Source: Deltaproteobacteria bacterium | GTDB taxonomy: Bacteria > Desulfobacterota > Syntrophobacteria > BM002 | DNA length: 57,190 nt | Direction: 5' to 3' | Assembly: GCA_037384945.1 (NCBI GenBank) | Contig: JARRNM010000038.1 | Coordinates: forward strand, 1-57,190 | In this document: positions 1,950-48,803 of the stretch, in pieces | Numbering within the stretch: position 1 is the first letter of the stretch | Layout: each line of letters opens with the position of its first letter | Made by a program: the position numbers and the translations under genes | Notes under the pieces: generated by a model | Told to the model about the DNA's origin: nothing | The model's database searches: none | The model's input: only the letters and a program-made list of their open reading frames with translations

Positions 1950-4346
1950 ATGAATAGCAAGATGAACAGCAGGTTCTTTTTTCTAATAGCCACCATGGTG
2001 TGTGTGGTAGCACTAAGGATTCCTGATGCCAGGTCCGCTGCCAAACTGCCTGTTGTTCGCATCGGTATTGTCAGGGACGGCCCGCCGGAACGTTTATCAG
2101 ACATCACCCCCCTGGTCAAAGAGGAAATCCTCAAACTAACCTCGGGGGAATTCGATGTCCGGTTTCCGCAAGCGAAATTCATTCAGGGTAACTGGGAACT
2201 AGGGGAAATAGAGAGCTCTGTGGACAAGCTGCTTGCCGATCCCGAGGTTGATCTGGTAATCACCCTCGGTTACCTATCGACGAATTACGTTTGCCATAAA
2301 GAAAAACTACCGAAGCCGGTGGTTGCCTCCATTGTAGCTGATGCCAAGCTGCAGAATCTGCCTCTCAAAGACGGTGCCAGCGGAGTCAAGAACCTCTGCT
2401 ACATTGATTCCTTCCTCAGTTTTGAAAGGGATATCAAGGTGTTCCACGAAATGGTTCCTTTCCGCAAACTGGTGGTTCTTGCTACCAGGAACTCCATTGA
2501 TGCTATCCCGTGGCTCGAGAAGAAATTACGCCAGACTGCCTACGAGTATACCATCGACATACAAGTCGTTCCCGTCGACCCCTCCGCTGAGCAAACCCTG
2601 GATGCTTTTCCTTCTGAAACCGACGCCGTTTACCTCCTGCCTCTTGCACAGATCACACCTGGTGAGTTCCGCAAACTCGTATACGGCTTGATCTTAAGAA
2701 GACTTCCAAGTTTCTCCATGCTGGGAAGAGACGATGTTGAGGCGGGGGTGCTTGCCAGTCTTGCACCTAAAGATCTATTCTTGCGTCTCACCAGGAGGAT
2801 TGCCCTTAACGTGCAGCGAATCCTTCTGGGAGAAGAGGCCTCCACTCTCAAGGTGGCTTTCCCCCTGGGTGAGAAGCTCACCATAAACATGGCCACAGGA
2901 AGGGCCATTGGTTTTTATCCCACCTGGAGTACACTCACCGAAGCAGATTTGCTCAATGAACAAGTTGAGCGAGTAGAGCGGAGACTTTCTCTGCAAAGTG
3001 CCGTGCGCGAGTCCATTGCAGCGAACCTTGACCTGGCGGCCCAGAACAGAAATGTTGCCGCAGGCGAACAGACCGTAAAACAGGCGCGTTCTGCCTTGCT
3101 GCCTCAGGTAGGCCTTGATGCCAGAGGTGAAATAATTGACAAGGACAGGGCAAAAATAAGTAGCGGTGTCACCCCTCAGCGCTCTGTTACAGGTTCAGTA
3201 ACCGCCACCCAGCTTCTTTACGATGAGGACTCCTGGTCGAACTTCACGGTTGAAAAAAATTTGCAGACCTCTCGCCAAGAGCAACGCAACACGGTGGAAA
3301 TCGACATCATCCGCAATGCGGCTGTGGCCTACCTCAATGTGCTGCGGGCCAAGACCCTAGAGCGTGTGCAGAAAAACAATTTGAAGTTAACCCGAGCCAA
3401 CCTCGAGCGTGCTCGGGTACGGGTCTCCATCGGCATCGCCAATCGCTCTGAGGAGTTTCGCTGGGAGAGTAAGATCGCCACAGACCGGGCTAATGTCCTC
3501 TTCGCTCAAGCCACAACCCGGCAAACTGAGATAGCACTCAACCGCTTGCTCAACCGGCCCCTGGGTGAAAAATTCGTCACTACGGAGACGGACCTCAGTG
3601 ATCCCCTCCTCATTGTCAGTAACCGGCGTCTTTTCCCCTATGTGGACAACCCACGAAACTTTCAGACTTTCAGTGATTTCATGGTCGCACAAGGGTTGGA
3701 AATTGCACCAGAACTTCTGGGTTTCGATGCCTTCATCTCTGCCCAAGAAAGAGTTCTGCTAAGGGCAAAGAGAGCCTTCTGGCTACCATCCTTTGGCGCC
3801 CAGGGGAGTGTATCCGAGTTGCTGGCTGAGAGTGGGGAAGGGCAACGAAGCGACACCCCTCTGGATGACACTGATTGGCGGGTAGGAGTTTTTGCCACTT
3901 TCCCTCTGGCAGAAGGAGGGTATAAATTTGCCACTATTAAGCGGGCCAGAGAAGAATTGTCGCGCCTCCAACTGGAGAAACAGTCAACATCAGAGCGAAT
4001 AGAACAAAACATCCGCTCAGCCCTCCACCAGGCAAGCGCATCCTATCCCAACATCCTCCTTTCTCGTTCTGCCGCAGAAGCAGCCAGGAAAAACCTCGAT
4101 CTGGTGACGGATCAGTATACACGCGGCCTGGTCACTATAGTTGATTTGCTGGATGCTCAGAATTCATCTCTCACAGCAGATCAGGATGCTGAAAATGCGG
4201 TCTATAACTTCCTCATTGACTGGATGGATGTGCAGCGTGCTGCCGGCAGGTTCGATTTTCTTATGACCCCGGGCCAAAGGGAGGAATACTTCCAGCGACT
4301 CCAGGTATTTTTCAAAGAGGCTGGGGTCAAGCCAATCAAGAGATGA
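1950..4346 (+). CDS. TolC-family outer membrane efflux protein with N-terminal ABC substrate-binding-like domain
   Basis: AGGAG RBS and signal peptide. C-terminal ~450 aa has OMF repeats (AVRESIAANLDL, QARSALLPQV, YTRGLVTIVDLLDAQ). N-terminal ~340 aa resembles ABC_sub_bind (LPSFSMLGRDDVEAGVLAS, KLTINMATGRAIG). Confidence 0.85.
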   Translation: MNSKMNSRFFFLIATMVCVVALRIPDARSAAKLPVVRIGIVRDGPPERLSDITPLVKEEILKLTSGEFDVRFPQAKFIQGNWELGEIESSVDKLLADPEVDLVITLGYLSTNYVCHKEKLPKPVVASIVADAKLQNLPLKDGASGVKNLCYIDSFLSFERDIKVFHEMVPFRKLVVLATRNSIDAIPWLEKKLRQTAYEYTIDIQVVPVDPSAEQTLDAFPSETDAVYLLPLAQITPGEFRKLVYGLILRRLPSFSMLGRDDVEAGVLASLAPKDLFLRLTRRIALNVQRILLGEEASTLKVAFPLGEKLTINMATGRAIGFYPTWSTLTEADLLNEQVERVERRLSLQSAVRESIAANLDLAAQNRNVAAGEQTVKQARSALLPQVGLDARGEIIDKDRAKISSGVTPQRSVTGSVTATQLLYDEDSWSNFTVEKNLQTSRQEQRNTVEIDIIRNAAVAYLNVLRAKTLERVQKNNLKLTRANLERARVRVSIGIANRSEEFRWESKIATDRANVLFAQATTRQTEIALNRLLNRPLGEKFVTTETDLSDPLLIVSNRRLFPYVDNPRNFQTFSDFMVAQGLEIAPELLGFDAFISAQERVLLRAKRAFWLPSFGAQGSVSELLAESGEGQRSDTPLDDTDWRVGVFATFPLAEGGYKFATIKRAREELSRLQLEKQSTSERIEQNIRSALHQASASYPNILLSRSAAEAARKNLDLVTDQYTRGLVTIVDLLDAQNSSLTADQDAENAVYNFLIDWMDVQRAAGRFDFLMTPGQREEYFQRLQVFFKEAGVKPIKR

Positions 4347-4600
4347 TTGGAGATTTCGGATTTGAGAAGGCATAGAGCATAGGGCAGAGAGCATAGAGTA
4401 AAACGAGAATGACGTTTATGGAAATTACAAATCACAAAACTCAATTACTTAGGTGTCAGGTGTCAGGTTTCGGGTGTCAGGAAAAAAATAAAAGGAAAAA
4501 CCTGAAACCTGAACACTGAAACCTGAAACCCTGAGATGTCTTGCTTGGAGTTTGGGATTTTATAAGTTAGCCATTACTCCAACACTCCATTACTCCAAAG
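4345..4600. repeat. Nested 7/8-nt-periodic inverted-repeat elements
   Basis: (GCATAGA)n, AAATCAC-type arm, (AGGTGTC)n..(CCTGAAA)n, TTTGGGATTT arm, (ACTCCAWY)n. Confidence 0.75.
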
Positions 4601-4653
4601 TGACTTCGATCTTTAGAACAAACTTTGACCCTGCCCTGTACATCTCCGCTAGA

Positions 4654-7731: not shown

Positions 7732-7813
7732 CAAGAATCCCCTTGTTTGATTCCAACCTGTCAAACCAAGACATCTGGCTACTGAACTAGTTCTTTATCG
7801 ACTATGGTTGTCC

Positions 7814-8013
7814 CTTGGAGTATTGGAGTAGTGGAGTATGGCGAACTTGTAAAATCCCAAACTACAAGCACCAAACTAAAAACAAATCCCAAATTCCAAT
7901 ATCTTAATGACCAAAACAGTTTGGAACTTTGAATTTCGGTCATTGTGATTTATTTGGTATTTGATATTTGTGATTTGGAATTTCTATACCTCCAGTACTC
8001 CATCACTCCACTA
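7814..8013. repeat. Periodic inverted-repeat element between the MFP and RND genes
   Basis: GGAGTATT..GGAGTAGT / ACTCCA arms enclose AAATCCC/AAATTCC versus TTTGGAATTT arms. Confidence 0.7.
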
Positions 8014-8024
8014 TTCTCAGAGGA

Positions 8025-9306: not shown

Positions 9307-10992
9307 TTAAGTCAACCACATGTATTGATAAGGTCTCAAGGTGAAGGAATCAGTTTTGAATTTCTCTCCCGAGATTAAGTCTTCCATCTGTTCTGGAACG
9401 CTATGGCCAGACAGAGAAAAGGAAATTTCTGTTGAGGAAACATTGGTCAGGGCATATAGCGTCTGCTTCTGGGAAGACCTCTTTATAACGAACGCCTTGG
9501 GATCAATTTCGAGTATCTCAAAATCGACGTTTGGATGGAAAGCTTCTTGCTCTCTCCGGGTCTTGATCAGCTTTATGTACGGGAAAAAGACCCTTGCCCG
9601 GAAGGAGTTTGGATCATTCAATTCCGACGCCACCTCTTCAGCATCTAATTTTTCCCGATTGATTGTCCTGGCCCTGCCCGTCTGTTTCACCCCTGCCAAC
9701 CAGTTTCGTGAACCTAACAGGCTGTGGATATAGGTAGCCGGGACTCCAGGGAGGACATACTGTATGGCCTGGGAAGCCAGGAATTTCTCTGCTCGAGTAG
9801 ACTCCGCACCTGCCAAAATAGCATCAACATAAGTGATGTTCAATTCATAAGGGCTGTCCGAGCCATCCGGGTTTCTCTTATACGACACCTGGCCGCCGTT
9901 ACCCTTCACCACCTCAACCAGGTTATCGATCTCCTCCGGCTGTAATATCCCTTCCAGAGGCCGCACACCGATGCCGTCATGTGATGCGGTGAAATTGAAA
10001 AAGGTGTTGCTCTCAGACTCCAGGTCGAGACCTCTGGCCCATTTTGACAGGACAGCGGCGTCTTCTTTCAGGAAGGAATAAAACAGCAGCGGCGGCAGGG
10101 TAAAGTTATAGACCATCTGGGCTTCATCGCGGCCGTCACCGAAGTAACTGATGTTCTCCTGGTGGGGTACGTTGGTCTCCGTCAGAAGAATTACATCCGG
10201 CGCCACCAGATCCAGTACAGCCCGAAACAGCTTTACCATGTCATGGGTCTGGCTCAGGTGGATACAGGTGGTGCCGATTTCTTTCCATAAGTAGGCAATT
10301 GCATCAAGTCTCAAGATCTTGGCACCTTTTGCAACGTAGAAAAGGAGCACTTCTATCATCTTCTCCAGCACATCCAGGCTTTTAAAATTAAAATCGATTT
10401 GATCTCCGCTGAAGGTTGTCCACAGATGGACGGTGCTCTCATCGTACTTCTTGTATTCACTCAGAAGGGGAAGTGACCTGGGCCGGGTGACCTGAGACAA
10501 ATCGGTTGCCGGATCAACTTCAATGGCAAAATCCGCGTACCTATTTTTGCCGGCAAGGTAATTTTGAAACCATTTACCTTTGGCAGAGAAATGGTTGACC
10601 ACGTAATCAAACATGAGCTGGAAATCGCCACCGATGGCAACTATGTCTTCCCAGGATCCAAGCTCGGGATTGATGGCGAAAAAATCCATGACCGAGAAGC
10701 CATCATCCGAAGACCAAGGGAAAAAAGGCAAGAGATGGATGGTAGAGATTGCATCCTTTAAATAGGTGTTGGCAAAATCATGAAGAGTGACCAAGGGGGG
10801 TTGTCCTTCTTCCAATAGCGAGTCGCCGTAGGTGATCAAAACTGTATCCTCTTGAGAAAAATATCCTTCTCTCCTACTTTTTTGGACATTAGCTTTTTCT
10901 ATCAAGGGCACGATTCTCTTTAAGGCCGACTCCCCTTTTCTCTCGCCGTAGATCCTTGTGAGTATGGCTTTTACCCTATCGAAGTCAGCCAT
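9307..10992 (-). CDS. GH13_18 sugar phosphorylase, probably glucosylglycerate phosphorylase (YcjM-like)
   Basis: RLDAIAYLWK nucleophile motif, LTETNVPH, ASHDGIG, PYELNITY. The ETN and YExN motifs match the GGaP clade rather than sucrose phosphorylase. Confidence 0.8.
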   Translation of the reverse strand: MADFDRVKAILTRIYGERKGESALKRIVPLIEKANVQKSRREGYFSQEDTVLITYGDSLLEEGQPPLVTLHDFANTYLKDAISTIHLLPFFPWSSDDGFSVMDFFAINPELGSWEDIVAIGGDFQLMFDYVVNHFSAKGKWFQNYLAGKNRYADFAIEVDPATDLSQVTRPRSLPLLSEYKKYDESTVHLWTTFSGDQIDFNFKSLDVLEKMIEVLLFYVAKGAKILRLDAIAYLWKEIGTTCIHLSQTHDMVKLFRAVLDLVAPDVILLTETNVPHQENISYFGDGRDEAQMVYNFTLPPLLFYSFLKEDAAVLSKWARGLDLESESNTFFNFTASHDGIGVRPLEGILQPEEIDNLVEVVKGNGGQVSYKRNPDGSDSPYELNITYVDAILAGAESTRAEKFLASQAIQYVLPGVPATYIHSLLGSRNWLAGVKQTGRARTINREKLDAEEVASELNDPNSFRARVFFPYIKLIKTRREQEAFHPNVDFEILEIDPKAFVIKRSSQKQTLYALTNVSSTEISFSLSGHSVPEQMEDLISGEKFKTDSFTLRPYQYMWLT

Positions 10993-11311
10993 TGTCTATC
11001 TCTCTTTTTGCGAGGCCGATCTTTGCAATTGTTAAGTTTTACTGGAGTAACGGAGAAATGATTATTCAAGTTGGAATTCCGCTTTTGGCTTTTTCCAATA
11101 CTCCAGTACTCCAACACTCCGAGACTCCAAGACCGGGCTTTCCCAGGCAGTTTTTTCGAATTAAGACTGCCTTTGGTAACTAGTTCAGCCCTGCTCTTGT
11201 CCGAAGAGTTCAGGATCATTGATGGCAGCTATTTCCAGTCGCCTCCGTAAGACGTCGCAAGAAAAGAAGCGTTTGCCCAACTCATAAGTATGCTGCTCTA
11301 TCCTGACTTCC

Positions 11312-15051
<3,740 letters not shown>

Positions 15052-15132
15052 CCGTTGTTCCTTTTCTTTTGTGCTGCAAGCTCGTTCAGGTTGATTGGTA
15101 AAGGTTTCACCTTAGCCACGGGCAGAAATCTC

Positions 15133-16566
15133 CTACTTCCTTCTCAGGTCGATGATTTCCATGCGATTGTTTGCTTGCGGATGTCTTGGTGAGGGTCCGG
15201 CTGCCAAAATCACTAAGTCTCCCTCCAGTTCATGCTTTTTCAGCCAATCTCGTGCGAAACTGTTCCAGTCCTCTATCTCGTCGTCCGGCAAATAAACCGG
15301 CTGGACGCCGTAAGAGAACTGCAGTTGTTGACAGGTGGCCTCGTTTGAACTTACGGCCGCGATCCATACAGGAAGCCTGAAACGCGTGATGCTTCTCACA
15401 GACGCCCCACTTTTGCTGGGTACTATCAAGGCGGCGGGGGACATGGTCTCCACGCTCGTCTCAACACTGAGGGCAATGAGATCCTTTAAATCAAGACTGC
15501 AGTCCAGGCCGCAGGCTCGCAACTCGCTTCGCACATGATGCCCCGGACGACGAGGCTCCACGGCAGAAGCAATCTTGGCCAGCATCTTCACTGCCTCCAC
15601 AGGATACTTGCCCGTTGCTGACTCACCGGAGAGCATAACGCAGTCCGTTCCATCCAAAATAGCGTTGGCCACATCGGTGGACTCTGCCCTGGTAGGACGG
15701 GGGTAGTCGGTCATCGATTCCAACATCTGGGTGGCGGTGATGACCGGCTTTCCCCTCATATTAGCCAGGTACATGAGGTCCTTTTGGGCAAGGGCAATTC
15801 TCTCGATGGGTATTTCCACCCCCAGATCCCCGCGGGCGATCATGATTCCGTCAGCCGCCTCAATGATCTCCTCCAGGTTATCTTGCGCTCGTGCTCGCTC
15901 TATCTTGCCGATGATAAACGGATGGTAGCCCTGCTCTGCGGCGGCGTCGCGCACTTCCATGATATCACTCTTTTTTTCCACAAAGGATTGACTGACTGCA
16001 TCCACTCCCTGTTCCAGCGCAAACTTCAAACACTCACGGTCGTGTCTAGTGAAGGCGCTGATGCCGAGGTCTATTCCGGGCAGGTTTAGACCTTTGCGGG
16101 ACCGTAGCTCACCCCCCGCCACCACCCGACACTCTATATCCTTGCCCCTTACTGCGACCACCTCGATCTGGATATAACCGTCATTGAGATACAGGGTGTC
16201 ACCGGGCCTTACCGCTTTTGGCAAACCTGGAAATGTCACCGAAGCTCGTCGGCTGTCACCGATGATCACTTCCGTGGTCAAAATGAATGAAGCGCCCACT
16301 TTGAGCTCTATTGGCTCCTCAGCCAGTTCGCCAATTCGTATTTTGGGACCGGCAAGGTCGGCTAGTATGGCAACTCGCCTCCCGGTTGCTCTGGCAGCAG
16401 ACCGAAGGTTTTCGATTGCCTTTTTATGAGTGTCGAAGTCACCATGGGAGAAATTCAGCCGGGCCACATTCATGCCCACCAGTATCATCTCCTCCATAAC
16501 CTCAGGTGATTCTGACGCCGGCCCAATGGTACAGACAATCTTGGTCTTGTTTGGCGGAAGTTTCAT
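15133..16566 (-). CDS. pyk: Pyruvate kinase
   Basis: TKIVCTIGP, RLNFSHG, MIARGDLGVE, ATQMLESM, RAESTDVANA. Confidence 0.98.
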   Translation of the reverse strand: MKLPPNKTKIVCTIGPASESPEVMEEMILVGMNVARLNFSHGDFDTHKKAIENLRSAARATGRRVAILADLAGPKIRIGELAEEPIELKVGASFILTTEVIIGDSRRASVTFPGLPKAVRPGDTLYLNDGYIQIEVVAVRGKDIECRVVAGGELRSRKGLNLPGIDLGISAFTRHDRECLKFALEQGVDAVSQSFVEKKSDIMEVRDAAAEQGYHPFIIGKIERARAQDNLEEIIEAADGIMIARGDLGVEIPIERIALAQKDLMYLANMRGKPVITATQMLESMTDYPRPTRAESTDVANAILDGTDCVMLSGESATGKYPVEAVKMLAKIASAVEPRRPGHHVRSELRACGLDCSLDLKDLIALSVETSVETMSPAALIVPSKSGASVRSITRFRLPVWIAAVSSNEATCQQLQFSYGVQPVYLPDDEIEDWNSFARDWLKKHELEGDLVILAAGPSPRHPQANNRMEIIDLRRK

Positions 16567-16577
16567 TAACCAAACCC

Positions 16578-18219
16578 TTATTGTAGAGGAAAAAGCAATG
16601 GGACAACCAGCAAGGTGACCACCATGGCCAAAAGCTGCAGGGGCACGCCCACCTTGACGAAGTCAGTAAATCGATAACCGCCTGGACCAAGAACCAGAGT
16701 ATTTACCGGAGATGCCACCGGGGTTGAAAAGGCTGTTGAGGCGGCCAGGGCCACAGTCATCAGGAAGGGATAAGGGGAGACCCCGGCCTCCATGGCAGCG
16801 CCGACAGCAATGGGGGCAACCAGTACGGTAGTAGCGGTATTGGAAATAAACTGACTAAATAGAGAGGTAATGATAAACAAGCCCGCCATCAAAGCTATGG
16901 GACCAAAGTCGCCCAAGCTTTCCGTAAGGCTGTTGACGATTAACTCCACTCCTCCTGTCTTTTCTAAAACTGTGGCCATGGGCAGCATTCCGGCGATAAG
17001 TACCAGGCTTTCCCAGTTTACCGACCTGTAGGCATCTTTCATGCTCACACAGCCGACAAGGACCATGGCCAATGCCGCCAGCAAAACCGCGGTAACCGCA
17101 TCCACCAGCTTGAAGGTCATCAGAAGCATCATGCCCAAAGTCACCGCCAGGGCCAAGGGGGCTTTACTCCTATTCGGGGCGACCTCGTTCATTTCTTTAG
17201 GCAGATTCAACACCAGGAAGTCCCTTTGCTTGCCTTGTAAAAGATCGATTTGAGCCCAGCCCCCACCCATTAAAAGTGAATCTCCGAAGGCAAGGGGAGT
17301 TTTAATCAACTCTTTGTTCAAGGGCTCCCCATGGCGTAGGACTGCGAGAACAGACAAGCCGTAGCGCTCGCGAAAGCGAGCTTCACTCAAAGTCTTACCA
17401 ACGAGTTCCGACCTCGGTGCCAACAGCACCTCCACCAGCCCGAGCTCCTGAGCCGCAAGTTTGCCCTGCCCCTCCCCGAACTCCAGTCTTTCCAGCTCTT
17501 CGGCCATTACCAGCCTGTCTACTTCCTCATGGGTTCCAACTGCATAGATGACGTCCCCCGCCCTGAACTCCGTGTCGATAAGGGCGGGATTAATCGTCTT
17601 AGTACGCCGCCGCTGCCGTTCTACCCCGAGCACGGTGACGCCGTATCTGGTTCGAAGCAGGGCTTGGCCCACAGTCTTGCCCTCCAAGGGTGAACCGGCC
17701 CATAGGCGCAAACGGTGTAACTGATTAGTAATGTTGTAGATATCCGCAAGCTCTCTCAGAGAAAAACGGTCTTTCACAGCTCCCTCCACCCCCTCTTCAT
17801 GGGAAAGTGAGCGTTGCCCGAATAGCATTATATAACCAATCCCAATGAGGAGAACCAGCAGACCAATGGGGGTGAAGTCGAAAAATCCGAAGGACTCCAG
17901 ACCATCCCTGGTCAGTTGCGTACTCACCACCAGGTTGGGAGGGGTGCCGATCAGAGTCAACATCCCGCCAATGAGAGAGGCAAAAGCCAAGGGCATCATC
18001 AGCCGTGAAGGACTTGTGCCGGCCTTGGAAAAGACCTGCAATCAACAAAACCACGGGATCACCAAAACCCGCAAGGGCAGCGGTCGGCGACAGCAAGCCG
18101 CTGAGTATCAAAGCCAATATGACCATGATGGCCACCACATCCAGGCGAAATCGGCCGCTGACAAACAGGATTACGGTTATCAGCAACAGGCCAAAAACAA
18201 AGAGGATCTCAGCCGTCAT
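16578..18219 (-). pseudogene. SLC13/CitMHS-type permease with TrkA-C domains (YfbS-like), interrupted by a deletion and frameshift near 18027
   Basis: N-terminal frame ends at DPVVLLIAGLF. The C-terminal frame resumes at KAGTSPSRLMMP. About 65 residues expected in YfbS-like proteins are absent. Confidence 0.8.
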
Positions 18220-18228
18220 TGCATTTTC

Positions 18229-19911
18229 CTAGGTACCCAATACTCTCTGGAGAATGGCTTTGGTTATCATATAGGTCGGACGTATTCCTTCGAGCCCCAT
18301 AGGGCCGGCTGCCAGAGTCTGCCCGCTCTTTAAAGGGTTATCCGAGGCATAGTAGGCGTACCTGACTTTGACATTCTCTGGAATATGGCCTCGGATGATG
18401 GCAGCATTTATTGCCCGCTGGTAATGACCGCCTTCCATCTCCAAGCCGATCGCTTTCCAGGTCGTGGTCTGAAACTTCTCCAGAATGTCGCTGTTCTGCA
18501 AGGAGGTGCCGAGAACGGTTATGATCGGACCCACATAAATATCTATGTCCCGGTCAAAATCCTCCCTGCCAAGATCGTTGTCCACAATATAGTTGTGAGC
18601 CTGTCCCTCGAGGACGTGAGCTGTTGGCAGCATTATGTCGCCCTTTTTTCCAGGCAATATGCCTGCCTTGCCCATGATGGAGATGGATCTGACCTGGAGA
18701 GTTTTGCTTGAGCCGTTCTGGTCCAAAGGCTCGAGGAGTTCATCCATCAGTTCAAATGCCTGGAAGCCGAAAGCATAATCCATGACCACAAGCACCGTCC
18801 TCTGTTTCACTACTTCATCAGATTTGAACTTGATTGCTGGATGGAGACCCACAGTCTTGAGCTTTGATGTGTCTATTATTTGCCAGTTTGTCTGCGCCCC
18901 ACTTTCATCCACCATCTCATGAAAGCCGTGTTTGCTGGCAAAGGATTTAATCTGTTCTTCCCGGTCACTAATGTGCTGGATAAAAGTGTAGAGATCTTTA
19001 TTTGGCTCTTTTCCTTTCTTGTCTTTAACCGCTCCGTATCCGTAGATAAGATTGACCACACTGTGAAGATTTGCACTGATTATATGGATTGGACGATCCT
19101 GCAGCCCGAGAGCGGCCAATTTGTTCTTTATGGAAGCCGCCCATTTTTTTCCGTAGAGCTGATGCACAATTTGGTCGATGAGAGAAGGCCTGAAATAAAC
19201 AACCAGCCGATCGTTTTCCCGGATTTCCTTTTCTATGAGATTGCGGAGACTGTAGATTATTTGGAAAAGGCCGTTATTGCTCTTAAGTTCATCCTTCACC
19301 TTGCCTAAATAATCGTAGGTATCTCTAGTTTCATGATAGGTTCTGCCCAAAAGGATGCTCAGGTTCCAGATCGCCTGCTCTAAGTCTTCCTTTTCAAGCT
19401 CTTCTTCCCGATGAACGTCTTTTTCGAACCGTAACCATTCCCTGATCGGCTTACCATCCTCGTCCCTGGTTTTGCTGTGTATGTGTTTCGCTTCTATGTA
19501 CAGAAAGGTCAGATGGGTCAAAATGTCATAGATTTCACTCATTCCCGTGCTGATTACAAAACCCATCTCATTGTCGCTGACGCGAAAGGAGATTCTCCTT
19601 CTGCTTGGTGGACGAAGTTTTTCAAATGAAGTTCCCTCCAGATCGCCTTTTACGGTCATGACAAAACGGTTGCACTGCTCAATTCCCCGTGGAAGCCTGT
19701 CCATGATGTATTCCAGACCCTTCAACTCAATTCTCTTGGGGTCATTCATGCTCCCGTAAATTTCAGGGCTGAGAGTTCTTAAGGAAGCCTCCAGGGCCTG
19801 GCCGGATTGGCCCGCCATGCTGTAATGCCCTCTTAGCAAGAGGGCATGGGCAATTATTTGAAACGCTCTGATTGCAACTCTTCCCTGATGAGCTCTGTCC
19901 ATATCATCCAT
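18229..19911 (-). CDS. Conserved unknown protein (DUF6909-like) with C-terminal nucleoside phosphorylase-type fold
   Basis: 560 aa soluble ORF co-oriented in the operon. GKAGIL..GDIMLP and GLEMEG motifs are typical of the PNP/UDP/AMP-nucleosidase fold. Family name is from recall and unverified. Confidence 0.65.
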   Translation of the reverse strand: MDDMDRAHQGRVAIRAFQIIAHALLLRGHYSMAGQSGQALEASLRTLSPEIYGSMNDPKRIELKGLEYIMDRLPRGIEQCNRFVMTVKGDLEGTSFEKLRPPSRRRISFRVSDNEMGFVISTGMSEIYDILTHLTFLYIEAKHIHSKTRDEDGKPIREWLRFEKDVHREEELEKEDLEQAIWNLSILLGRTYHETRDTYDYLGKVKDELKSNNGLFQIIYSLRNLIEKEIRENDRLVVYFRPSLIDQIVHQLYGKKWAASIKNKLAALGLQDRPIHIISANLHSVVNLIYGYGAVKDKKGKEPNKDLYTFIQHISDREEQIKSFASKHGFHEMVDESGAQTNWQIIDTSKLKTVGLHPAIKFKSDEVVKQRTVLVVMDYAFGFQAFELMDELLEPLDQNGSSKTLQVRSISIMGKAGILPGKKGDIMLPTAHVLEGQAHNYIVDNDLGREDFDRDIDIYVGPIITVLGTSLQNSDILEKFQTTTWKAIGLEMEGGHYQRAINAAIIRGHIPENVKVRYAYYASDNPLKSGQTLAAGPMGLEGIRPTYMITKAILQRVLGT

Positions 19912-20054
19912 GGCTATATCTCTGTCCGTTTTTCACTTGGGGCAATAGGATTCTGGGGTGATGGAGTGTTGGAGTACTCCAAAGTAGACGTTTCTTGTGA
20001 CTTCCGTTGGCAATAGTGAGAGCTTAATTTAGAAGACCAAACCACCGCTTACGC

Positions 20055-21344
20055 TTAAATCATCTCCCTCGGCTGTCCCGTGCAGGAGAGCACGCCGGTC
20101 CACAGTTTGTCCTTTGGATCGATTTGTTTACGCTCCGAAACCGCCGCAGAAATTGGTACGTAGGTGAACTCATCCCTCCAGTAAGCTACAACCATGTTGG
20201 TTCTCCCGGCCATAGCTGCGTGGACCGCGTTGTGAGCCAGTATAAGACAGAACGCCGAATCCGGCGGACTCGCCGGCATACTCCGAATAGTGTAACTGGG
20301 ATCAATATACTTAAGTTCCATATCAATCCCCGCTCTACTGAAATAATCCTTGATTTGCTCTTTAAGAAAGACACCAATATCGCCCAATCGAACGTTACCT
20401 GAAGCATCCCGTTCGCCCGTTGTCCCCATCAGATCCTGGCCAGCTCCTTCCGCAACCACCACCACGGCATGGTGTCTATTTTCCAGTCTCTCCTTCAGCG
20501 CTCCGAGGAAACCAGGTAAAGTGAAGCTCACCTCGGGCACCAGACAAAAATTGACGTCGCTGTTTGCCAGAGTAGCGTGAGCGGCGATAAATCCGGCATG
20601 GCGTCCCATCAGTTTCACCAGGCCGATACCGTTTCTCGCTCCTTCCGCTTCTGCATGGGCAGCATAGATTGCCGTGGTCGCTTCTGAGACAGCGGTCACA
20701 AAACCAAAAGACCTTTGTACAAAAGAAATGTCGTTGTCGATGGTCTTGGGAATGCCAATTACGCCGATTTTCAAGTTACGTTGTCTAATCTCCTCCGAAA
20801 TAGCCTGAGCTCCTCGCAGGGTTCCGTCTCCGCCGATAGCAAAGAGAATCCCCACGTTCATCCTCTCTAGAGTATCCACCATCTCAGAGACATCTTGAGG
20901 GCCACGGGATGAACCCAATATAGTTCCTCCCTGCTGGTGAATGTCTTCCACAACTTCCGGAGTCAGTTCCAGGGATGCGTGACCGTACCTATAAGTAAGT
21001 CCTTCAAATCCATAGCGAAAACCAAATACCGTCCGAACCCCGTAATGATAGAGAAGACTCAAGACAATGGCCCGAATGACGTCATTCAACCCAGGACAGA
21101 TACCACCACAGGTCACGATGCCGCACTTGAGCTTAGAAGGATCGAAGTAAATTCTTTCCCTCGGCCCGGCCATCTCAAAACATGGTGGCAGCTCATCCTT
21201 GTCGAGAAAGTCCGTAATTACGCTGCAATCTGCATGATAAAGTACATGCTTGCCATCGCTGACAAACTGCACACCCGACATGGGAGATGGTATACGGCAC
21301 TGTCCCAATCTCGAAATGGTTAGGTCCATATCATTGATGTCCAT
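20055..21344 (-). CDS. pfkA: 6-phosphofructokinase, PPi-PFK-related clade X type, predicted ATP-dependent
   Basis: TCGGICPGLN, GGTILGSSRG, IGGDGT, PKTIDND, MGRHAGFIA, YIDPSYTIRS. Confidence 0.93.
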   Translation of the reverse strand: MDINDMDLTISRLGQCRIPSPMSGVQFVSDGKHVLYHADCSVITDFLDKDELPPCFEMAGPRERIYFDPSKLKCGIVTCGGICPGLNDVIRAIVLSLLYHYGVRTVFGFRYGFEGLTYRYGHASLELTPEVVEDIHQQGGTILGSSRGPQDVSEMVDTLERMNVGILFAIGGDGTLRGAQAISEEIRQRNLKIGVIGIPKTIDNDISFVQRSFGFVTAVSEATTAIYAAHAEAEGARNGIGLVKLMGRHAGFIAAHATLANSDVNFCLVPEVSFTLPGFLGALKERLENRHHAVVVVAEGAGQDLMGTTGERDASGNVRLGDIGVFLKEQIKDYFSRAGIDMELKYIDPSYTIRSMPASPPDSAFCLILAHNAVHAAMAGRTNMVVAYWRDEFTYVPISAAVSERKQIDPKDKLWTGVLSCTGQPREMI

Positions 21345-21397
21345 ATAGGTCTCCTAGGTATTATTATCATTGAAATGATGGAGTCTGGCAGAAGTAG

Positions 21398-23890: not shown

Positions 23891-23976
23891 ACTAATAACG
23901 GATAACGACTCTGTCTGCTGCACTCTGCCAGCTGCCTCCTGCCAGCTGTATGTCCCCATGCTCTATGCCCTATGCG

Positions 23977-28047: not shown

Positions 28048-28108
28048 AAACTCCTCTCTTAAGGTATCAATTCAAGTCGATCTGCAATCTTCAACCTAAA
28101 GTCTGCAA

Positions 28109-30062: not shown

Positions 30063-31373
<1,311 letters not shown>

Positions 31374-33013: not shown

Positions 33014-33024
33014 GTCCAGGAAAG

Positions 33025-33093
33025 AACTAGGCACTAAGCACCAGACACTAGGCACAACAAAGAAGTAGTCGGTAGTCAGTAGCCGGTAGTTAG
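33025..33093. repeat. Heptamer repeat block, near-copy of 43804-43866
   Basis: AACTAGGCACTAAGCAC..AAGAAG(T/C)AGTC..GTAG at both sites. Confidence 0.7.
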
Positions 33094-33270
33094 TTATAGT
33101 AATTTAGAAATCATCCTTCGGACTCGCACCCTGCGGGCGGGTTCCGGGTTTCGACTTTAAGGAATGTTTTGACTCTATGCCCCATGCCCTATGCTCTATG
33201 CCTTCCGAAATCTGCAATCCGAAGTATCCAAAGTGCTTAGTACTTAGTAGCGGAACGGATGCGACCAGAA

Positions 33271-36369: not shown

Positions 36370-36372
36370 CTT

Positions 36373-39895: not shown

Positions 39896-40160
39896 ATGAA
39901 GAAGATCATGGTCTTAATTTGTACAGTTTTCCTGTTCCTGGGCCCTCACCAGAGAGGACCTTGACGTCTTTCATCAAAGTATAGTCAATGATGATGCTGC
40001 GGTGTTTTTGAAGCTCAGACAAGAAGGTAGAGCCTGGCTGTCAAGGGCAGGAGTGGAAGTCTACATCCTCGAAACTACAGACTCCGGCGAAATCAAGATA
40101 AGAACAAAGAATGCCTCACAAGAAATCTGGACAGTGCGGGAGGCATTAGAGAAGAAGTAG
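39896..40160 (+). pseudogene. Small exported hypothetical protein, frameshifted near 39940 (absent from the ORF track)
   Basis: GAGG RBS and signal-like MKKIMVLICTVFLFL. A second frame reads ALTREDLDVFHQSIVNDDAAVFLKLRQEGRAWLSRAGVEVYILETTDSGEIKIRTKNASQEIWTVREALEKK-stop. Confidence 0.55.
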
Positions 40161-40232
40161 TCAGATGTCAGGTGTCAGGTGTCAGCAATAGAAACACAAA
40201 GGGTAGAACCTGAAACCTGAACACTGAAACCT
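40161..40232. repeat. (AGGTGTC)n/(CCTGAAA)n hairpin, same family as 4451-4534 and 48612-48697
   Basis: Shared CCTGAACACTGAAACCT arm. Confidence 0.75.
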
Positions 40233-41047
40233 TATGGTAGTCGTTTCAACCAGGAAGCGTGCTCAAACCAGCGTTCAGTCAGCTCGTCCAGCCTACCCGT
40301 CTCATCGAGCGTATCGAGAAAGTTTTCCATCCAGTTGACCAGATGGGGGTCATAAGAAGGCAGGGCAATACCTATAGGCTCATAGGTAAGGGGGGTAAAT
40401 ATAGAAAGCAGTCCCTGATTTGGATGGCGCAAGAGGGATACCACGCAGATGGGATAGTCGGCAACCATAGCGTCTACCTTGCCCTTGAGCACCAGGTCCA
40501 CGGCTTCATTGTAGTCCTTTGCCGGGATGAACTGGACCTTTGGTAATACTGCTTGAACGAAATATTGACTGGTGGAACCCTTGAGAGCGGTCAACCTGGT
40601 GTTTGGGCTGTTTACCTCAGTGGCTTCTTTGGCATTGGCTATGGTCTCGATTTTTGTAAGAAATGCTTTACCGGAAACATAGTAGGGACCGACGAAGGCA
40701 ACTTTCAGATTCCTTTTGGGGGTTATAGTCATCCCTGACATGACCAGATCCACCTTGCCTTTTTCCAGGGCTGGGAGGAGCTCGGAAAATTGCATGGTTT
40801 CAATTTTTAGTTTAACCCCCATGGCGTCGGCCATCATTCTGGCCAGGTCCACTTCGAACCCTATTACCTCACCATCCTTGGTGGTCATGTTGAGGGGGGG
40901 CATGCTGCCGGCTGTTCCCAGCACCAACTCGCCTCTCTGCAAAATACTATCAAGTGCCGGCGTTGGCGTAGGCTTGACTATTTTCTGGGTACAACCGAAC
41001 CAAAGAAAAGAAAAAATAAGGGCAAAAACTGCTATACCTCTTTTCAT
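40232..41047 (-). CDS. Polar amino-acid ABC substrate-binding lipoprotein (SBP family 3)
   Basis: Lipobox WFGC, GFEVDLA, LLPALEKGKVDLVMSGMTIT..R. No cognate permease nearby. Confidence 0.9.
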   Translation of the reverse strand: MKRGIAVFALIFSFLWFGCTQKIVKPTPTPALDSILQRGELVLGTAGSMPPLNMTTKDGEVIGFEVDLARMMADAMGVKLKIETMQFSELLPALEKGKVDLVMSGMTITPKRNLKVAFVGPYYVSGKAFLTKIETIANAKEATEVNSPNTRLTALKGSTSQYFVQAVLPKVQFIPAKDYNEAVDLVLKGKVDAMVADYPICVVSLLRHPNQGLLSIFTPLTYEPIGIALPSYDPHLVNWMENFLDTLDETGRLDELTERWFEHASWLKRLP

Positions 41048-43716: not shown

Positions 43717-44032
43717 GTGGATTTGACATTGCGGATTGCGGATTTGGGTAAGCATAGGGCACTTTTCAGCTTGCAGCGGGCAGCAGGCAGCTTGCAGTCA
43801 TTAAACTAGGCACTAAGCACTAAACACTAGACACCGCAAAGAAGCAGTCAGTAGCGAGTAGTTTAGAAGAACCCGATTTTCATTGCCTTTCTCCTGAATT
43901 CTGGCTTCTGAATTCTGGCTCCTTACTCTATGCTCCATGCCCTATGCCCCATGCTCAGTTCTACTGGCTACTGTATTTTTTGATTGCAGATTGTAGGTTT
44001 AAGGTTGGGCATTTCGAACCTGAGCGTGAGGA

Positions 44033-45385: not shown

Positions 45386-45695
45386 TTTCAGCTGGCAGGA
45401 AGCAGCTGGCAACTGGCAGAAATCAGAGGTCAGAAGGCGGAGGACAGACGACAAATGACAGACGACAGCAAGTTAAATCCTTCTGAATGACTCCCATGAC
45501 GAATTAACCATTTGACTAATTCTCTAATTGACTAATTGAGCAAAGGAACTGATTGACAGGTAGATCCGTGGGCAGATAGTTTTGGGGGAGTCATTCAGAA
45601 GGATTTAACTTGCTGTCGTCTGTCATTTGTCGTCTGTCCTCCGCCTTCTGACCTCTGATTTCTGCCAGTTGCCAGCTGCTTCCTGCCAGCTGAAA
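45386..45695. repeat. Perfect 110-bp inverted repeat with a 90-bp spacer
   Basis: 45386-45495 is the exact reverse complement of 45586-45695. The arms are made of 7-nt units. Confidence 0.9.
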
Positions 45696-46763
45696 TGGCC
45701 TGTTCCTTCGGATAGGGTGTTTCTCACAGGATCGGGAGATTCTTACTGCGCCGCCCTATTTGGCCAGTGGCTGATGGAAGAACGTGGCCGGGTATATGGT
45801 CTGCCAGCCCTTGAAGCGAGCCAGGCTGCTCAGCACTTCCAAGCCGGCGACAATCTAATTGGCATCAGCGTATCCGGTCGCACAGTAAGAGTCTTAGAGG
45901 CGGCCAAGAGAGCCTTGACGGCAGGCGCTCAGGTAGTAGCGGTAACCGATGATCTGCACAGCCCTCTAGCAGAACTGGCCTCTTCGGTCTGGCCTATATA
46001 TGCTTCCCCCCCGGAAGAACTACAGGATACCAGGTATACAGACGAGTACGCCAGACAATACATTGGTTATCACCACGATGTCGCCCAGAGCAAAACCTTC
46101 TGGGCTGCTCTACTAACCCTTATGCGAGGGGCCGAAACAGGACCAGATTGGCAGATCCTCTACGATCACACCCGCACCTTGCTCTCACCCACCTTTTATG
46201 AGCCCTTATTCAACAAAGCCAATCTCTGGGCCGAAAGTGGACAAACCTTTTTCCTGGGAAGCGGTTGGGCAAAAATTGCCGCTCGCTTCGCCAGTTACAA
46301 GATGCACGAGTTCAGTCGCCGGGGGTTTTTCACTGGCATCGAGGAATACTGCCACACCCTCTACTTCATAACCCGGTCCAAGGACACTCTTGTCTTTCTT
46401 ATCTCTGACGAGGATACCGCTGCCAGAGCAGGGGAAGTTGTTCCCGTGCTCTGCGAATTGTTCGATGCCAGGATCATCTGGCTTCAACCTGAGTTCCTTG
46501 GCAGCGACTTCACGCCTGCCGGGTCCGAGGGCAACATTCAAGTGGTAAACACGCCAGCCTCCGACCAGCCCGAGCAGCAGTTTCTTGATCTCATCCTTGC
46601 CGTGCAATGGCTGACCTATGCAATCGGCCGGGTAAACGCACCCGACATCAATACCTTCCACGCCGGCTACGATGCAGAGCGTCTGGTGGCAGGGACCTTG
46701 AGAACCATCCGCCAATCTGCCATTCGAGTATCAAAGCACAGGAAGCTTGCAGATGCAGATTAA
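45696..46763 (+). pseudogene. Double SIS-domain sugar-phosphate isomerase/deaminase-like protein, 5' end replaced by an inverted-repeat arm
   Basis: FLTGSGDSY, GISVSGRT, VAVT..SPLA, FLGSG, EEYCH. The track N-terminus (45627-45695) is translated repeat DNA. Confidence 0.65.
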
Positions 46764-47632: not shown

Positions 47633-47766
47633 GCTTCTTGGACAGGTAGAAGGTAAAATAAACCCTGGCCCTCACCTCCTCGCCAAGCGGCTGGCTTTTG
47701 AGCGTTGCTGGACGATTGAGCTATGTCGGCTTAATTTTGGTCCTCGCAGAACGAGAGCTTTAACCT

Positions 47767-48591
47767 ATGAATGTCCTGGAGGCCTTTTGTCTCGGCGCTC
47801 TGCAAGGTTTAACTGAATTTCTCCCAATTAGCAGCTCAGGGCATCTGGTCCTGGCCCAACATCTGTTGGGATTCCGGGAATCACAATTATTTTTTGATGT
47901 TGCGGTGCATGTGGGTACCCTTATGGCCGTATTTTTGGTCTTTCGCGGTGATTTGGCCCTCATGCTCAGGGGCTGCTTAAGGGCCTTAGGCCAGGCAACC
48001 TCCTCCCAAGCCACTGCCACCTCCAATGGTTTGAATAGTGGCGTAAAGCTGGCCTGGATGATCCTGGTTGGCTCCATACCTACAGCCATCATCGGTTTGC
48101 TTTTCAAAGACGTCTTTGCTCGCTTCTTTACCTCACCTGCCATCGTCGCTCTAGGTTTGTGGATCACTGGTTTTTTCCTCATCTGGAGTCGCAGGTCCAG
48201 GCCGAACCCCAAGCATCCGGACAACCCGGGAGTGTTTAATGCCCTGATGATTGGCTTGGTTCAGGGCGCGGCAATCACCCCCGGTGTGTCCCGCTCGGGA
48301 GTCACTATCACCTTGGGGATGCTACTCGGCCTCGAGCCAGACCTGGCATTCCGCTTTTCTTTTCTCCTGTCCATCCCAGCGATTCTTGGAGCGCTGGCCC
48401 TTGAAGCATTTCACGGAGGTGGCAACTATCCTGAATGGCAGGTGGTGGCCGTGGGCTTTTTCTCGGCTTTTCTTGTGGGTTGGTTCGCTCTGCGCATATT
48501 GCGATCATTGGTGAGCAAGGGCAAACTATTCTATTTTGCCCCTTATTGTTTAGTCCTTGGAGCCGTGGCTTTCCTAATTGCCTTCCTTTAA
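47767..48591 (+). CDS. uppP: Undecaprenyl-diphosphatase
   Basis: QGLTEFLPISSSGH, HVGT, PGVSRSG, FSFLLSIP. Confidence 0.96.
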   Translation: MNVLEAFCLGALQGLTEFLPISSSGHLVLAQHLLGFRESQLFFDVAVHVGTLMAVFLVFRGDLALMLRGCLRALGQATSSQATATSNGLNSGVKLAWMILVGSIPTAIIGLLFKDVFARFFTSPAIVALGLWITGFFLIWSRRSRPNPKHPDNPGVFNALMIGLVQGAAITPGVSRSGVTITLGMLLGLEPDLAFRFSFLLSIPAILGALALEAFHGGGNYPEWQVVAVGFFSAFLVGWFALRILRSLVSKGKLFYFAPYCLVLGAVAFLIAFL

Positions 48592-48803
48592 TGATTACGT
48601 TGCTCAGATTTGAGGTTTTAGGTTTCAGGTGTCAGGAAGAAGAAACAGAAACGCTAAACTTGCACCCTGACTAATTTATACCTGAACACTGAAACCTCAT
48701 GACCGAGCCTCCCCACAGATCTGTATCCTTTGTGTTATTGGTGATCCTCGTGGTGTGCAAGGAGTAATGGCTTGAATCTGCTTCCGTAGATTTTTAGGCA
48801 GGG

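Follow-up and report, generated by a model that had tools for sequence, protein, structure and literature searches.

What produces the short repeats that occupy the intergenic gaps of contig JARRNM010000038.1? This 57,190-nt stretch of a deltaproteobacterial assembly (GCA_037384945.1), referred to here in its full length as the window, carries tandem arrays of 7-nt words between its genes, and some of these arrays face a reverse-complement partner. A first-pass annotation interpreted them as traces of a system that is mobile or generates repeats, and linked them to comparable arms on either side of genes for four-helix-bundle (IVP/bAvd-like) proteins. Both ideas found support in related genomes, where genes of the IVP family (PF05635) were framed by such arrays, words were shared between dispersed arrays and gene-flanking arms, and orthologous sites were seen in different states. 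At a probability of about 0.68, the period-7 elements, and the rarer ones of period 8 or 9, are the terminal repeats of cassettes of the intervening-sequence (IVS) type, together with the remains and relatives of such cassettes that lack an open reading frame (ORF). The window itself holds only ORF-less forms.

The host assembly (G000) comprises 4.73 Mb in 325 contigs, with a G+C content of 50% and a completeness of 83%. It was compared with 17 other congeneric species and four genomes from sister genera, giving a set of 22 genomes of the family; the metagenome-assembled genomes (MAGs) of this set are incomplete, and assemblies break at repeats. Arrays were called with Tandem Repeats Finder (TRF; score of at least 30 in the window), and shuffling in 200-nt blocks, which kept the local composition, served as the genome-wide control. 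ORFs of at least 100 codons were used as a proxy for genes, and "intergenic" denotes what lies outside them.

The period-7 signal is pervasive and far above chance. TRF called 2095 period-7 arrays in the assembly versus 73 in the shuffled control; 1837 of the 2095 (88%) were intergenic, and 277 canonical heptamer words were represented among them. Two word variants often alternated within one array, which gave rise to 459 calls of period 14 (14 after shuffling) and 112 of period 21 (1 after shuffling). Periods 8 (481 versus 117) and 9 (732 versus 79) were enriched as well. The autocorrelation of intergenic bases peaked at lags 7 (0.296), 14 (0.282), 21 (0.276), and 28 (0.263), compared with 0.254 in shuffled sequence; coding DNA had no peak of this series and showed its period-3 signal alone. 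The window contributed 21 period-7 arrays (at 4370, 4451, 4498, 7951, 21404, 23925, 23949, 25597, 33065, 33175, 40160, 40207, 43728-43930, 45443-45662, and 48604), at the places named in the first-pass annotation, along with period-8 arrays at 4576, 7815, 11094, and 19954 and one period-9 array at 23582.

Elsewhere in the host assembly, arrays of the same kind frame a gene. G000 contains nine PF05635 (23S_rRNA_IVP) genes, and for six or seven of them inverted arrays stand on both sides, with a different word in every case. By contig, the upstream and downstream words are ATCAGGG and CTGATCC in C307, GTTGGAG and CCTCCAA in C167, AGATCCA and TGCATCT in C159, AATTTCG and GAAATTC in C21, TCATTTC and TGAGAAA in C106, and GGTGTCA and CCTGACA in C28. 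The C28 word recurs in three hairpins of the window (4451, 40160, and 48604). The encoded protein, also called S23p or four-helix-bundle protein, is a homolog of Avd, a protein of diversity-generating retroelements (DGRs). Its profile matched PDB entries 2RLD and 2GSC, with five chains per entry in each case.

Across the family, 105 IVP matches were found in 22 of 22 genomes; eight had internal stops and several were truncated. Inverted arrays of the same period on either side of the ORF, with at most one mismatch per unit (the strict rule), were found for 45 of the 70 family IVP genes with enough flanking sequence. The arms had a median of 4.4 to 4.6 copies (interquartile range, 4.1 to 5.1) and a length of 31 to 33 nt. 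Among the 49 cassettes analyzed for period, 36 had period 7, eight had period 8, and five had period 9. About 62 nt separated the end of the upstream array from the conserved protein region, and about 24 nt lay between the stop codon and the downstream array. A complete cassette of about 450 to 600 bp is composed of an array, about 60 nt with a Shine-Dalgarno-like GGGGG run, a PF05635 gene of 120 to 150 codons, about 25 nt, and the reverse-complement array.

This framing was specific to IVP. Under the strict rule, 4 of 9 IVP genes in G000 were flanked versus 35 of 3944 other ORFs, and these 35 were ordinary housekeeping genes beside common words, which bears out the link made in the first-pass annotation. 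Array pairs 250 to 2500 nt apart were inverted in 127 cases and direct in 175, and IVP genes were the sole tightly fitting inserts. Other gene families between arms were considered and rejected: long-range inverted pairs showed no excess over direct ones, and the ORFs they enclosed were of the housekeeping kind. Reverse transcriptases (RTs) were not found in the assembly, and transposases of the Y1 type, to which the REP-associated tyrosine transposases (RAYTs) of repetitive extragenic palindromic (REP) sequences belong, were not framed.

This last point bears on an alternative explanation, in which the arrays would be REP sequences or their paired form (REPIN) mobilized by a RAYT, or MITEs (miniature transposable elements with inverted repeats) derived from insertion sequences. 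These elements are likewise short, intergenic inverted repeats dispersed in hundreds of copies, and four Y1-transposase-like genes (PF01797) exist in G000, one with a single array nearby. Since none of the four is framed by arrays, a RAYT/REP origin was rejected. The likeness to REP and bacterial interspersed mosaic elements (BIMEs) and to the REPIN-RAYT systems of E. coli and Pseudomonas (PMC3116915) covers few gene-carrying copies with the repeat on their flanks, hundreds of short inverted-repeat derivatives, a location mostly at gene 3' ends, and mosaics. The arms found here are nevertheless tandem arrays of 7- to 9-mers in 277 words, unlike one conserved palindrome of 20 to 40 nt, and the associated protein is a four-helix bundle without known catalytic activity in place of a Y1 transposase. 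A MITE has terminal inverted repeats shared with a transposase-bearing element and target-site duplications; only IVP genes were specifically flanked here, and no such duplications were seen. At the Rfam gathering score, the window matched no repeat element and no rRNA, its sole match being a tRNA gene at 50118-50191. Together, we regard mobilization of the REP or MITE kind as very improbable.

The window hairpins resemble a defined part of a cassette. In BLAST comparisons, the three hairpins of the AGGTGTC family (4428-4524, 40161-40235, and 48603-48647) were 79 to 89% identical to a hairpin directly after the stop codon of cassette C28. The first (4451-4530) pairs (AGGTGTC)x4.4 at 4451-4481 with (AAACCTG)x4.7 at 4498-4530; a spacer of 17 nt separates the arms, every heptad has one G.A mismatch, and the match was 78.6% identity over 103 nt. 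The second, (GTCAGGT)x3.7 plus (AACCTGA)x3.7 at 40160-40232, ends at the stop of ORF 40232-41047 and matched at 81.6% over 76 nt. The third, at 48604-48699, belongs to the AGGTTTC/AGGTGTC word family, lies in a convergent spacer, and matched at 89% over 46 nt. Judged from these alignments, the dispersed ORF-less form corresponds to the 3' terminal module of the cassette, at least in the AGGTGTC family.

The vocabulary of the arrays leads to the same genes. The family cassettes yielded 28 canonical heptamer arm words, and 52% of the period-7 arrays of G000 (n = 2051) matched one of them exactly, compared with 4.5% after letter shuffling; with arm words taken only from other genomes, the figures were 43% and 3.3%. 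Most word types listed in the first-pass annotation served as cassette arms in at least one genome of the genus. Among these, AGGTGTC arms cassettes in G000 and G004, GCATAGA in G005, G010, G011, and G016, ACTAGGC in G009 (13 copies), and GATTTAA/AATCTAA in G010 and G016. The arm words CAGACGA and GGGCAGC occurred in G005 and G010, and the 8-mer TGGAGTAA occurred in G012 and G014; several 9-mers served as arm words too. Neither the window 9-mer ATAGTAAAR nor the AAATYMC/TTTGG units appeared in the family set of arm words. The latter units recur as a module upstream of a G004 cassette.

At two spacers of the window, sister species carry IVP cassettes. The spacer at 7765-8024 separates the adaptor gene from the permease gene in an operon for a resistance-nodulation-division (RND) pump. 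Read in operon orientation, elements of the same type shared their boundaries there (stop codon, tcacATTTCGG ... CAATCGaATGggag). G005 and G004 carry complete IVP cassettes with (GCGGATT)/(AATCCGC) arms, and G016 and G010 carry sister cassettes with (GCAGATT)/(AATCTGC) arms. In G018, which belongs to another genus, the same cassette has an internally deleted ORF with both ORF ends kept. Within the same boundaries, G006 and G007 have hairpins of 77 and 98 nt (about 70 to 98 nt), and G003 has 37 nt with a single unit of each arm. A different, 8-mer hairpin occupies the site in the window and in G002 and G015. In the window it is a nested hairpin in the mfp-RND operon spacer (7815-8018), with outer arms (TTGGAGTA)x3 and (TACTCCAN)x3 and inner arms of period 7, A/C-rich versus T/G-rich (CAAATCC/TATTTGG). 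This element is dispersed and multi-copy, with 80 to 89% identity at many loci throughout the genus.

The second spacer, at 4347-4653, contains GATTGCG-armed cassettes in G004 and G014 and 8-mer-armed (TGGAGTAW) ones in G017 and G009; in the latter pair, the IVP ORF is uninterrupted in G017 and has an in-frame TAG in G009. In the window, the array at 4571-4600 and the next 30 nt have their ortholog in the right arm of this G009/G017 cassette type. The window keeps at 4545-4600 a vestige of this 8-mer-armed (TGGAGTAW/TACTCCA) cassette, with the left-arm remnant ttggagtttggg and the right arm ccattactccaacactccattactccaaag. Its AGGTGTC hairpin sits within an A/C-rich hairpin that is uninterrupted in G007. 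Thus, elements nest into and replace each other, and chains of words result. Orthologous spacers in sister species ranged from 37 to 626 nt and differed in their words. Cassettes decay as they acquire stop codons and lose internal sequence, ending as short hairpins or single arms. The proposal that the elements are empty derivatives therefore held where filled, broken, deleted, and near-empty states were seen, that is, at these two spacers.

Arm word and protein diverged together. The same word was shared by 29 of 29 pairs of IVPs at 80% identity or more, by 70% of those at 70 to 80%, by 42% at 60 to 70%, and by 0 of 1092 pairs below 60%, and the period was identical in all pairs with at least 70% IVP identity; the pairs come from related genomes, so they are phylogenetically non-independent, and the counts are small. 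The ratio of non-synonymous to synonymous substitution (dN/dS) of the IVP genes had a median of 0.08 over 58 pairs, and the protein is under strong purifying selection. Consensus arm words differed by 0.03 to 0.06 per site, compared with 0.22 to 0.60 at synonymous and 0.05 to 0.07 at non-synonymous sites. The sequence of the arms, beyond their mere pairing, appears to be kept. This is the main basis for inferring a reader of the words, for which the co-inherited IVP is the obvious candidate. An IVP that recognizes the arrays of its own word would explain why the arm sequence is kept beyond pairing. ORF-less hairpins might then be kept or spread by an IVP supplied elsewhere in the cell, like non-autonomous elements.

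The orientation of the cassettes bears on their expression. Of 58 resolvable IVP genes, 49 shared their strand with the gene upstream, and 34 shared it with both neighbors; a G-rich Shine-Dalgarno-like run precedes the IVP start codon. The cassettes look promoter-less and are probably read through from the host gene, like rRNA IVSs. In the transcript or in single-stranded DNA, the paired arrays would loop out the gene, as in ORF-bearing IVSs of 23S rRNA, and the paired arms could be substrates of RNase III in transcripts. Of 17 congeneric genomes, 14 encode RNase III, as does each of the eight high-quality genomes in the family. The G000 assembly gave no match to PF14622 or PF00636, probably as a result of its 83% completeness.

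The same build was found around IVP genes far outside the family. IVP genes in nine genomes and records of other phyla fitted the strict rule; in total it held for 12 of 23 IVP loci, and about 15 were recognized by eye. Upstream and downstream arrays were TAGTTCC x4.6 and GAACTAG x3.9 in Aggregatilineales, AGTGCAA x5.1 and TTTGCAC x5.1 in Kuenenia, TAATGTA x4.7 and CATTATA x4.9 in Spirosoma, AGTTTGT x4.7 and AACCACA x4.3 in Chitinophagaceae, AGTAGGG x7.9 and TCCCTAC x4.9 in Nostoc edaphicum, AGGGTGT x4.3 and CTACACC x4.3 in Calothrix, and GGGTGTG x3.9 and CCTACAC x4.4 in N. punctiforme. Arms of 8-mers were seen in Picosynechococcus PCC 7003 (AGGAGATA x4.0 and ATCTCCTA x3.4) and Gemmatirosa (GAGGGCAG x4.4 and CTCCTGCC x4.2), and Anaerolineales had three cassettes. 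In Anabaena sp. 90, GGTGACA-type units upstream face (CTGTCAC)n downstream by eye, with no upstream TRF call. These carriers belong to cyanobacteria, Chloroflexota, Planctomycetota, Bacteroidota, and Gemmatimonadota, and the build recurs in six phyla. A tblastn search of plasmids returned 43 records with IVP, mostly from Nostocales. Among five cyanobacterial plasmids, a word formed perfect or near-perfect arrays in those records where its IVP was encoded, some of them as ORF-less hairpins of neighboring spacers; one record without the AGGGTGT-armed IVP had a degenerate CGGGTGT-type hairpin.

Some of these replicons showed features of separate interest. Genes annotated as "four helix bundle protein" were located within CRISPR-Cas operons (cas6/cas4 and cas10/cmr2-cmr3) and between two ribonucleotide reductase subunit genes, with 35 to 90 nt per side; the carriers were Anabaena sp. 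90 pANA02, a plasmid of Picosynechococcus PCC 7003, and Nostoc edaphicum pNe_5. The Chitinophagaceae MAG contig JAHBTJ010000011.1 had ten period-7 arrays in 21.6 kb, compared with 0 to 2 in most other loci with the same gene, and its genome had three IVP genes, one of them with heptamer arms at no more than one mismatch per unit.

Among dispersed arrays, the (GATTGCG)n word gave 110 to 490 matches in each of the 17 congeneric species and 0 to 7 in other genera, with 0 to 1 for the reversed-word control. Counts were highest in G004 and G010, both of which have cognate cassettes, a comparison confounded by kinship and incompleteness. A dependence of array abundance on the cognate IVP gene is only suggested by these counts.

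Such numbers can also be read the other way round, with the arrays coming first. Slippage-prone repeats, among which heptamers would be favored by the replicative polymerase, would fold back locally, and IVP genes would be passengers that landed in hairpins or were captured by them. Arrays are far more numerous than IVP genes and are maintained even where no cognate gene occurs. Polymerase slippage has been named as the cause of the bacterial heptamer excess (work cited in PMC4692102), and copy number differs among Coxiella strains (PMC4990558). The window itself offers a perfect inverted repeat of about 110 bp (45386-45695), on this view a local and recent inverted duplication of whole chains. 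Its arm is a chain of (CAGCTGG), (CAGAGGT), and (GACAGAC), its loop is (TGACTAAT)x5.4, and the segment 45378-45696 folds at -245.9 kcal/mol (z -28.9) into a stem of about 110 bp without interruption. It lies in a divergent spacer, where its right arm overlaps the called start of ORF 45627-46763, the real start (ATGctcagagatgaatac in relatives) being further down. At this site, relatives have unrelated chains and lack the inverted repeat. It is either a very recent fold-back copy of the whole array chain or an assembly artifact. Slippage, however, leaves unaccounted for the same 28 words in half of the arrays, the tracking of the protein lineage by the word, the keeping of the arm sequence while synonymous sites saturate, and the gene-plus-arms build in six phyla. 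The internally deleted cassettes, moreover, give a direction from cassette to hairpin. For these reasons, we consider it unlikely that the arrays came first.

How far do the arrays fold? Among 924 adjacent array pairs no more than 150 nt apart, 130 were reverse-complement related (at most one mismatch per unit) versus 41 expected by re-pairing, and direct relations were depleted (11 versus 32 expected). The arms were typically imperfect, with a median of 21 nt between them. In a partner search independent of TRF, an inverted match of at least 12/14 within 200 nt was found for 29.6% of arrays, compared with 3.4% for the mirror control, 2.3% for complement only, and 9% for direct matches. The inverted layout noted in the first-pass annotation is thus genuine but confined to a minority of arrays, and the statement there that the units are usually mirrored was too strong: the majority stand alone or are linked in chains with words of other kinds. 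The commonest pair of the genome is AGGTGTC/AAACCTG, with 45 hairpins; in 36 of them every heptad carries a single G.A opposition, which reads T.C on the complementary strand, and nine are perfect. In the window, folding energies were -38.1 kcal/mol for 4448-4536 (z -7.0 versus shuffles), -32.9 for 48600-48700 (z -4.9), -22.3 for 40158-40234 (z -2.5), and -66.2 for 7808-8012 (z -5.9).

Two pairs cited as mirrored arms did not behave as such. The ACTAGGC/TAGTCRG pairs at 33025 (-15.1 kcal/mol, z -1.5) and 43804 (-12.6 kcal/mol, z -1.6) folded no better than shuffles and are recurring chain neighbors rather than hairpin arms. The first belongs to a chain at 33022-33250 (ACTAGGC-type, GTAGTCG, CTATGCC, AATCCGA-type words) that has the module order of the second chain in inverted form. 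The second chain, at 43728-43990, was identified from TRF calls and the sequence as ATTGCGG, GCATAGG, CAGCNGG, ACTAGGC-type, GTAGTNN, CTGAATT/CTGGCTT, and CTATGCC. Likewise, the units reported at 25598 and 28075 are not partners. The former are an (ATTTTAG)x6.6 array (25597-25642) that fills an 84-nt spacer within an operon, with a word found in G010/G016 cassette arms; the latter, read from the sequence, are two spaced AATCTGC-type units (28078-28114), and a 2.4-kb gene separates the two spacers.

The placement and folding of the arrays raise the question of a host function. In such a case, they would be binding sites of global regulators, a role suggested in Geobacter metallireducens, or RNA hairpins with a part in the termination, insulation, or processing of operon transcripts. 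Arrays made up 7.2% of the bases of convergent spacers and 6.2% of co-directional ones, compared with 3.2% of divergent ones, and 27% of arrays started no more than 15 nt from a stop codon. Several elements fold strongly, the genus has RNase III, and paired tandem 7- to 9-mers have been annotated as regulator sites (PMC2700814). Against these points stand the wholesale differences between orthologous spacers of sister species (37 to 626 nt), the absence of any Rfam family, and flanking genes that are functionally unrelated. Hairpin orientation was random with respect to transcription, at 13:13 for ORF-less AGGTGTC/AAACCTG hairpins. The sense strand folded better in about 60% of array-bearing co-directional spacers, and array-free spacers were equal in this respect. 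An array-specific signal on the RNA strand (G.U versus C.A asymmetry) was ruled out by these two results. Host regulation as the origin of the arrays is quite unlikely.

Several observations weigh against the reading of the elements as cassette ends and their remains. In the window, a profile search in all six frames found neither an IVP ORF nor a recognizable remnant of one; its elements were accordingly filed as ORF-less relatives and not as cassettes. An inverted partner was seen for only about 30% of arrays. Nine IVP genes stand beside about 2000 arrays in G000, the assembly, at 83% completeness, lacks a cognate IVP for its commonest words (ACCTCTG, AGCTGCC, and AATCCGC), and (GATTGCG)n is abundant in all 17 species, with or without a cognate gene found. 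The status of empty derivative is direct for some elements only, and most arrays are untraceable to a particular cassette. The co-divergence of protein and word could be plain co-inheritance of the cassette. The lack of orientation or strand bias leaves an RNA-level role of the empty forms unsupported. No target-site duplication was visible at the junctions compared over nine genomes, and copying by an RT was set aside, as the 83%-complete G000 assembly had no match to PF00078. None of the four Y1 genes was framed by arrays either. The idea of one heptad per subunit of a pentameric protein was also weakened. Genome-wide, array length stayed at about 26 to 27 nt across periods 7, 8, and 9 while the unit number dropped from 3.7 to 3.1, and this constancy of length rather than of unit number argues against one unit per pentamer subunit. 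Carriage by phages had no support in a collection of cultured phages, in which the IVP profile matched three DGR Avd genes only, at 30% identity.

The closest published relatives of these cassettes are the ORF-bearing IVSs of 23S rRNA that encode S23p/IVP in Leptospira, Coxiella burnetii, Xanthomonas, and Brucella and have been viewed as selfish and possibly mobile since 1993 (PMC4990558). In Coxiella, the IVS is considered a selfish element; its S23p ORF is preceded by three to four GACAGAT heptamers, the number of which varies among strains, and RNase III cuts at the first repeat. The S23p of X. campestris is a homopentamer in the form of a pentameric toroid (PMC4990558). The likeness consists of a PF05635 protein, a gene in the loop of a long stem formed by inverted flanks, and a decay-prone ORF. 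Inverted flanks that could loop out an insert were also found in the window, where arms had at most one mismatch per unit and folds reached z values of -4.9 to -28.9, with some cited pairs at z -1.5. The PF05635 ORF between the arms, lacking in the window, was present in the family and host proportions given above. The present elements differ from IVSs in their location, which is in spacers of ordinary protein genes, including operons, in place of rRNA helices; those of the window all lie between protein-coding ORFs and not in the 23S rRNA helices (9, 25, and 45) where IVSs are located. Both arms here are full tandem arrays, and dozens of word lineages occur per genus. The dN/dS of 0.08 is unlike the situation in Coxiella, and ORF-less hairpins and solitary arms occur here in thousands.

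Heptamer arrays without a gene have been described in several bacteria. In Geobacter metallireducens, intergenic pairs of three to five tandem 7-, 8-, or 9-mers on opposite strands (classes 1 to 3), together with a 4x GGGACCG element, were listed as putative global regulator sites (Aklujkar et al. 2009, PMC2700814). They share with our elements the opposite-strand tandem 7- to 9-mers, the multi-copy intergenic occurrence, and a deltaproteobacterial host, and their MTYCTGA word recurs at window position 43894 (CTGAATT). They differ in that they were read as regulator sites, with alignments in supplements, and no link to a gene family was drawn. In Xanthomonas campestris/axonopodis, about 186 GGGAATC arrays, 70 of them in convergent pairs, were described in the strain of the 2GSC S23p (Rehm et al. 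2015, PMC4692102). Each Xanthomonas genome has 70 to 75 convergent inverted pairs, which vary in length and sequence among close relatives and are mostly transcribed without strand preference; Nostoc PCC 7120 has GGGGATT arrays, and detailed work on bacterial heptamer repeats was said to be lacking (PMC4692102). These arrays resemble ours in being hundreds of intergenic heptamer arrays with inverted pairs. The differences are one dominant word, an interpretation as G-quadruplexes, and no proposed associated gene. The TAACTGA repeats of marine Beggiatoaceae, cyanobacteria, and Bacteroidetes (MacGregor 2015, PMC4679880) are also intergenic tandem heptamers, each set having between two and six copies, and show a patchy distribution over distant phyla. 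They are of a single word, 169 sets are direct versus one indirect, and they lie just upstream of start codons.

In comparison with these, a further group is found in cyanobacteria, where the repeats and the IVP genes meet. The short tandemly repeated repetitive (STRR) sequences are tandem heptanucleotides of several unrelated words in the intergenic DNA of heterocystous cyanobacteria. STRR heptanucleotides of cyanobacteria were reportedly treated by Mazel et al. in 1990. The STRR of Calothrix PCC 7601 are cited in PMC4692102. Tandem heptamers, several unrelated words, and a location in non-coding DNA are common to STRR and the present elements, and the cyanobacterial IVP genes studied here are framed by such arrays. 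STRR differ in having been defined in cyanobacteria as direct arrays, without gene association or inverted layout. A cyanobacterial host of the window, which the STRR-like heptamers might suggest, was ruled out, as no Photo_RC/psbA match was obtained and the 4.7 Mb of the assembly contain just 36 HIP1 sites. A Chloroflexota origin was rejected too: the glucose-6-phosphate isomerase of the host found its best match in a MAG labeled Syntrophobacteria (82%), ahead of Chloroflexota MAGs.

The claim of an undescribed system stood in part. ORF-bearing 23S rRNA IVSs, the heptamer arrays of Xanthomonas, Nostoc, and Geobacter, and STRR are each published separately, and the system is not wholly undescribed. 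A full-text search that lacked most subscription journals returned no paper linking the four-helix-bundle family to heptamer arrays beyond the Coxiella IVS.

A wider interpretation is possible, and we offer it tentatively. IVP/S23p proteins would be sequence-specific partners of heptamer arrays, and cassettes and ORF-less hairpins would form a widespread class of mobile elements without a transposase. This class would be the common cause of STRR, the GGGAATC pairs of Xanthomonas, the Geobacter sites, and the general excess of heptamers, as well as the source of ORF-bearing 23S rRNA IVSs. Apart from this wider view, the shared words connect intergenic heptamer runs with IVP cassettes, two subjects that each lacked an explanation for about 30 years. 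Three puzzles long treated separately, namely, the role of S23p/IVP, the origin of rRNA IVSs, and the bacterial heptamer excess, are brought onto one footing by the present data: the spacer words of a genome are the arm words of its IVP cassettes, these words are conserved like protein sequence, and the cassette build is found in six phyla. This also explains why the spacers of such genomes vary so much and assemble poorly. For annotation, hundreds of "orphan" spacers, operon-internal hairpins, and MAG contig breaks could be assigned to one type of element.

The remaining elements of the window fit into the vocabulary described above to different degrees. A (GCATAGA)x4.1 array at 4370-4398 has the word of the cassette arms in the four genomes named above (G005, G010, G011, and G016). 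The period-8 array (TCCAATAC)x4.6 at 11094-11130 belongs to the word family of the 8-mer IVP cassette arms, and a second period-8 array, (TGGAGTGA)x2.8 at 19954-19975, was called by TRF and is followed by tactcca. A period-7 hairpin, A/C-rich versus T/G-rich (CAAATAA.../GTTTGGA...), at 21395-21625 includes an inner hairpin and a terminal ACTCCA array; it is the same module as that at 7850-7983, and it matched the one that lies upstream of the AGGTGTC cassette in G004 at 85.7%. The period-9 array (ATAGTAAAR)x3.4 called by TRF spans 23582-23610, and a chain of (CTGCCAG) and (TATGCCC) arrays at 23908-23979 abuts the end of ORF 23977-25581. A short hairpin of GGATTTCAGATTGAG versus CCAAAATCTTCAATCCAAAATCTCAAATCT at 56123-56182 was recognized from TRF and the sequence.

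A different kind of small element, not built of heptamers, occurs at 23730-23870 and also in G014, G002, and G016. Its termini are of the GTCATTCTGAG...CTCAGAATGAC type and enclose a stem rich in G and C (cccgctaacagcggg). An insert of about 190 nt lies between tcagccctgatatctcatgaat and attcatgagatatcagggct in G002 and G016, and the group looks like a separate MITE-like family. On the minus strand, positions 9307-21344 hold a sugar-metabolism cluster (sucrose-phosphorylase-like, pgi, glgX, pyk, DASS transporter, and pfk genes), in which repeat arrays fill nearly all spacers.

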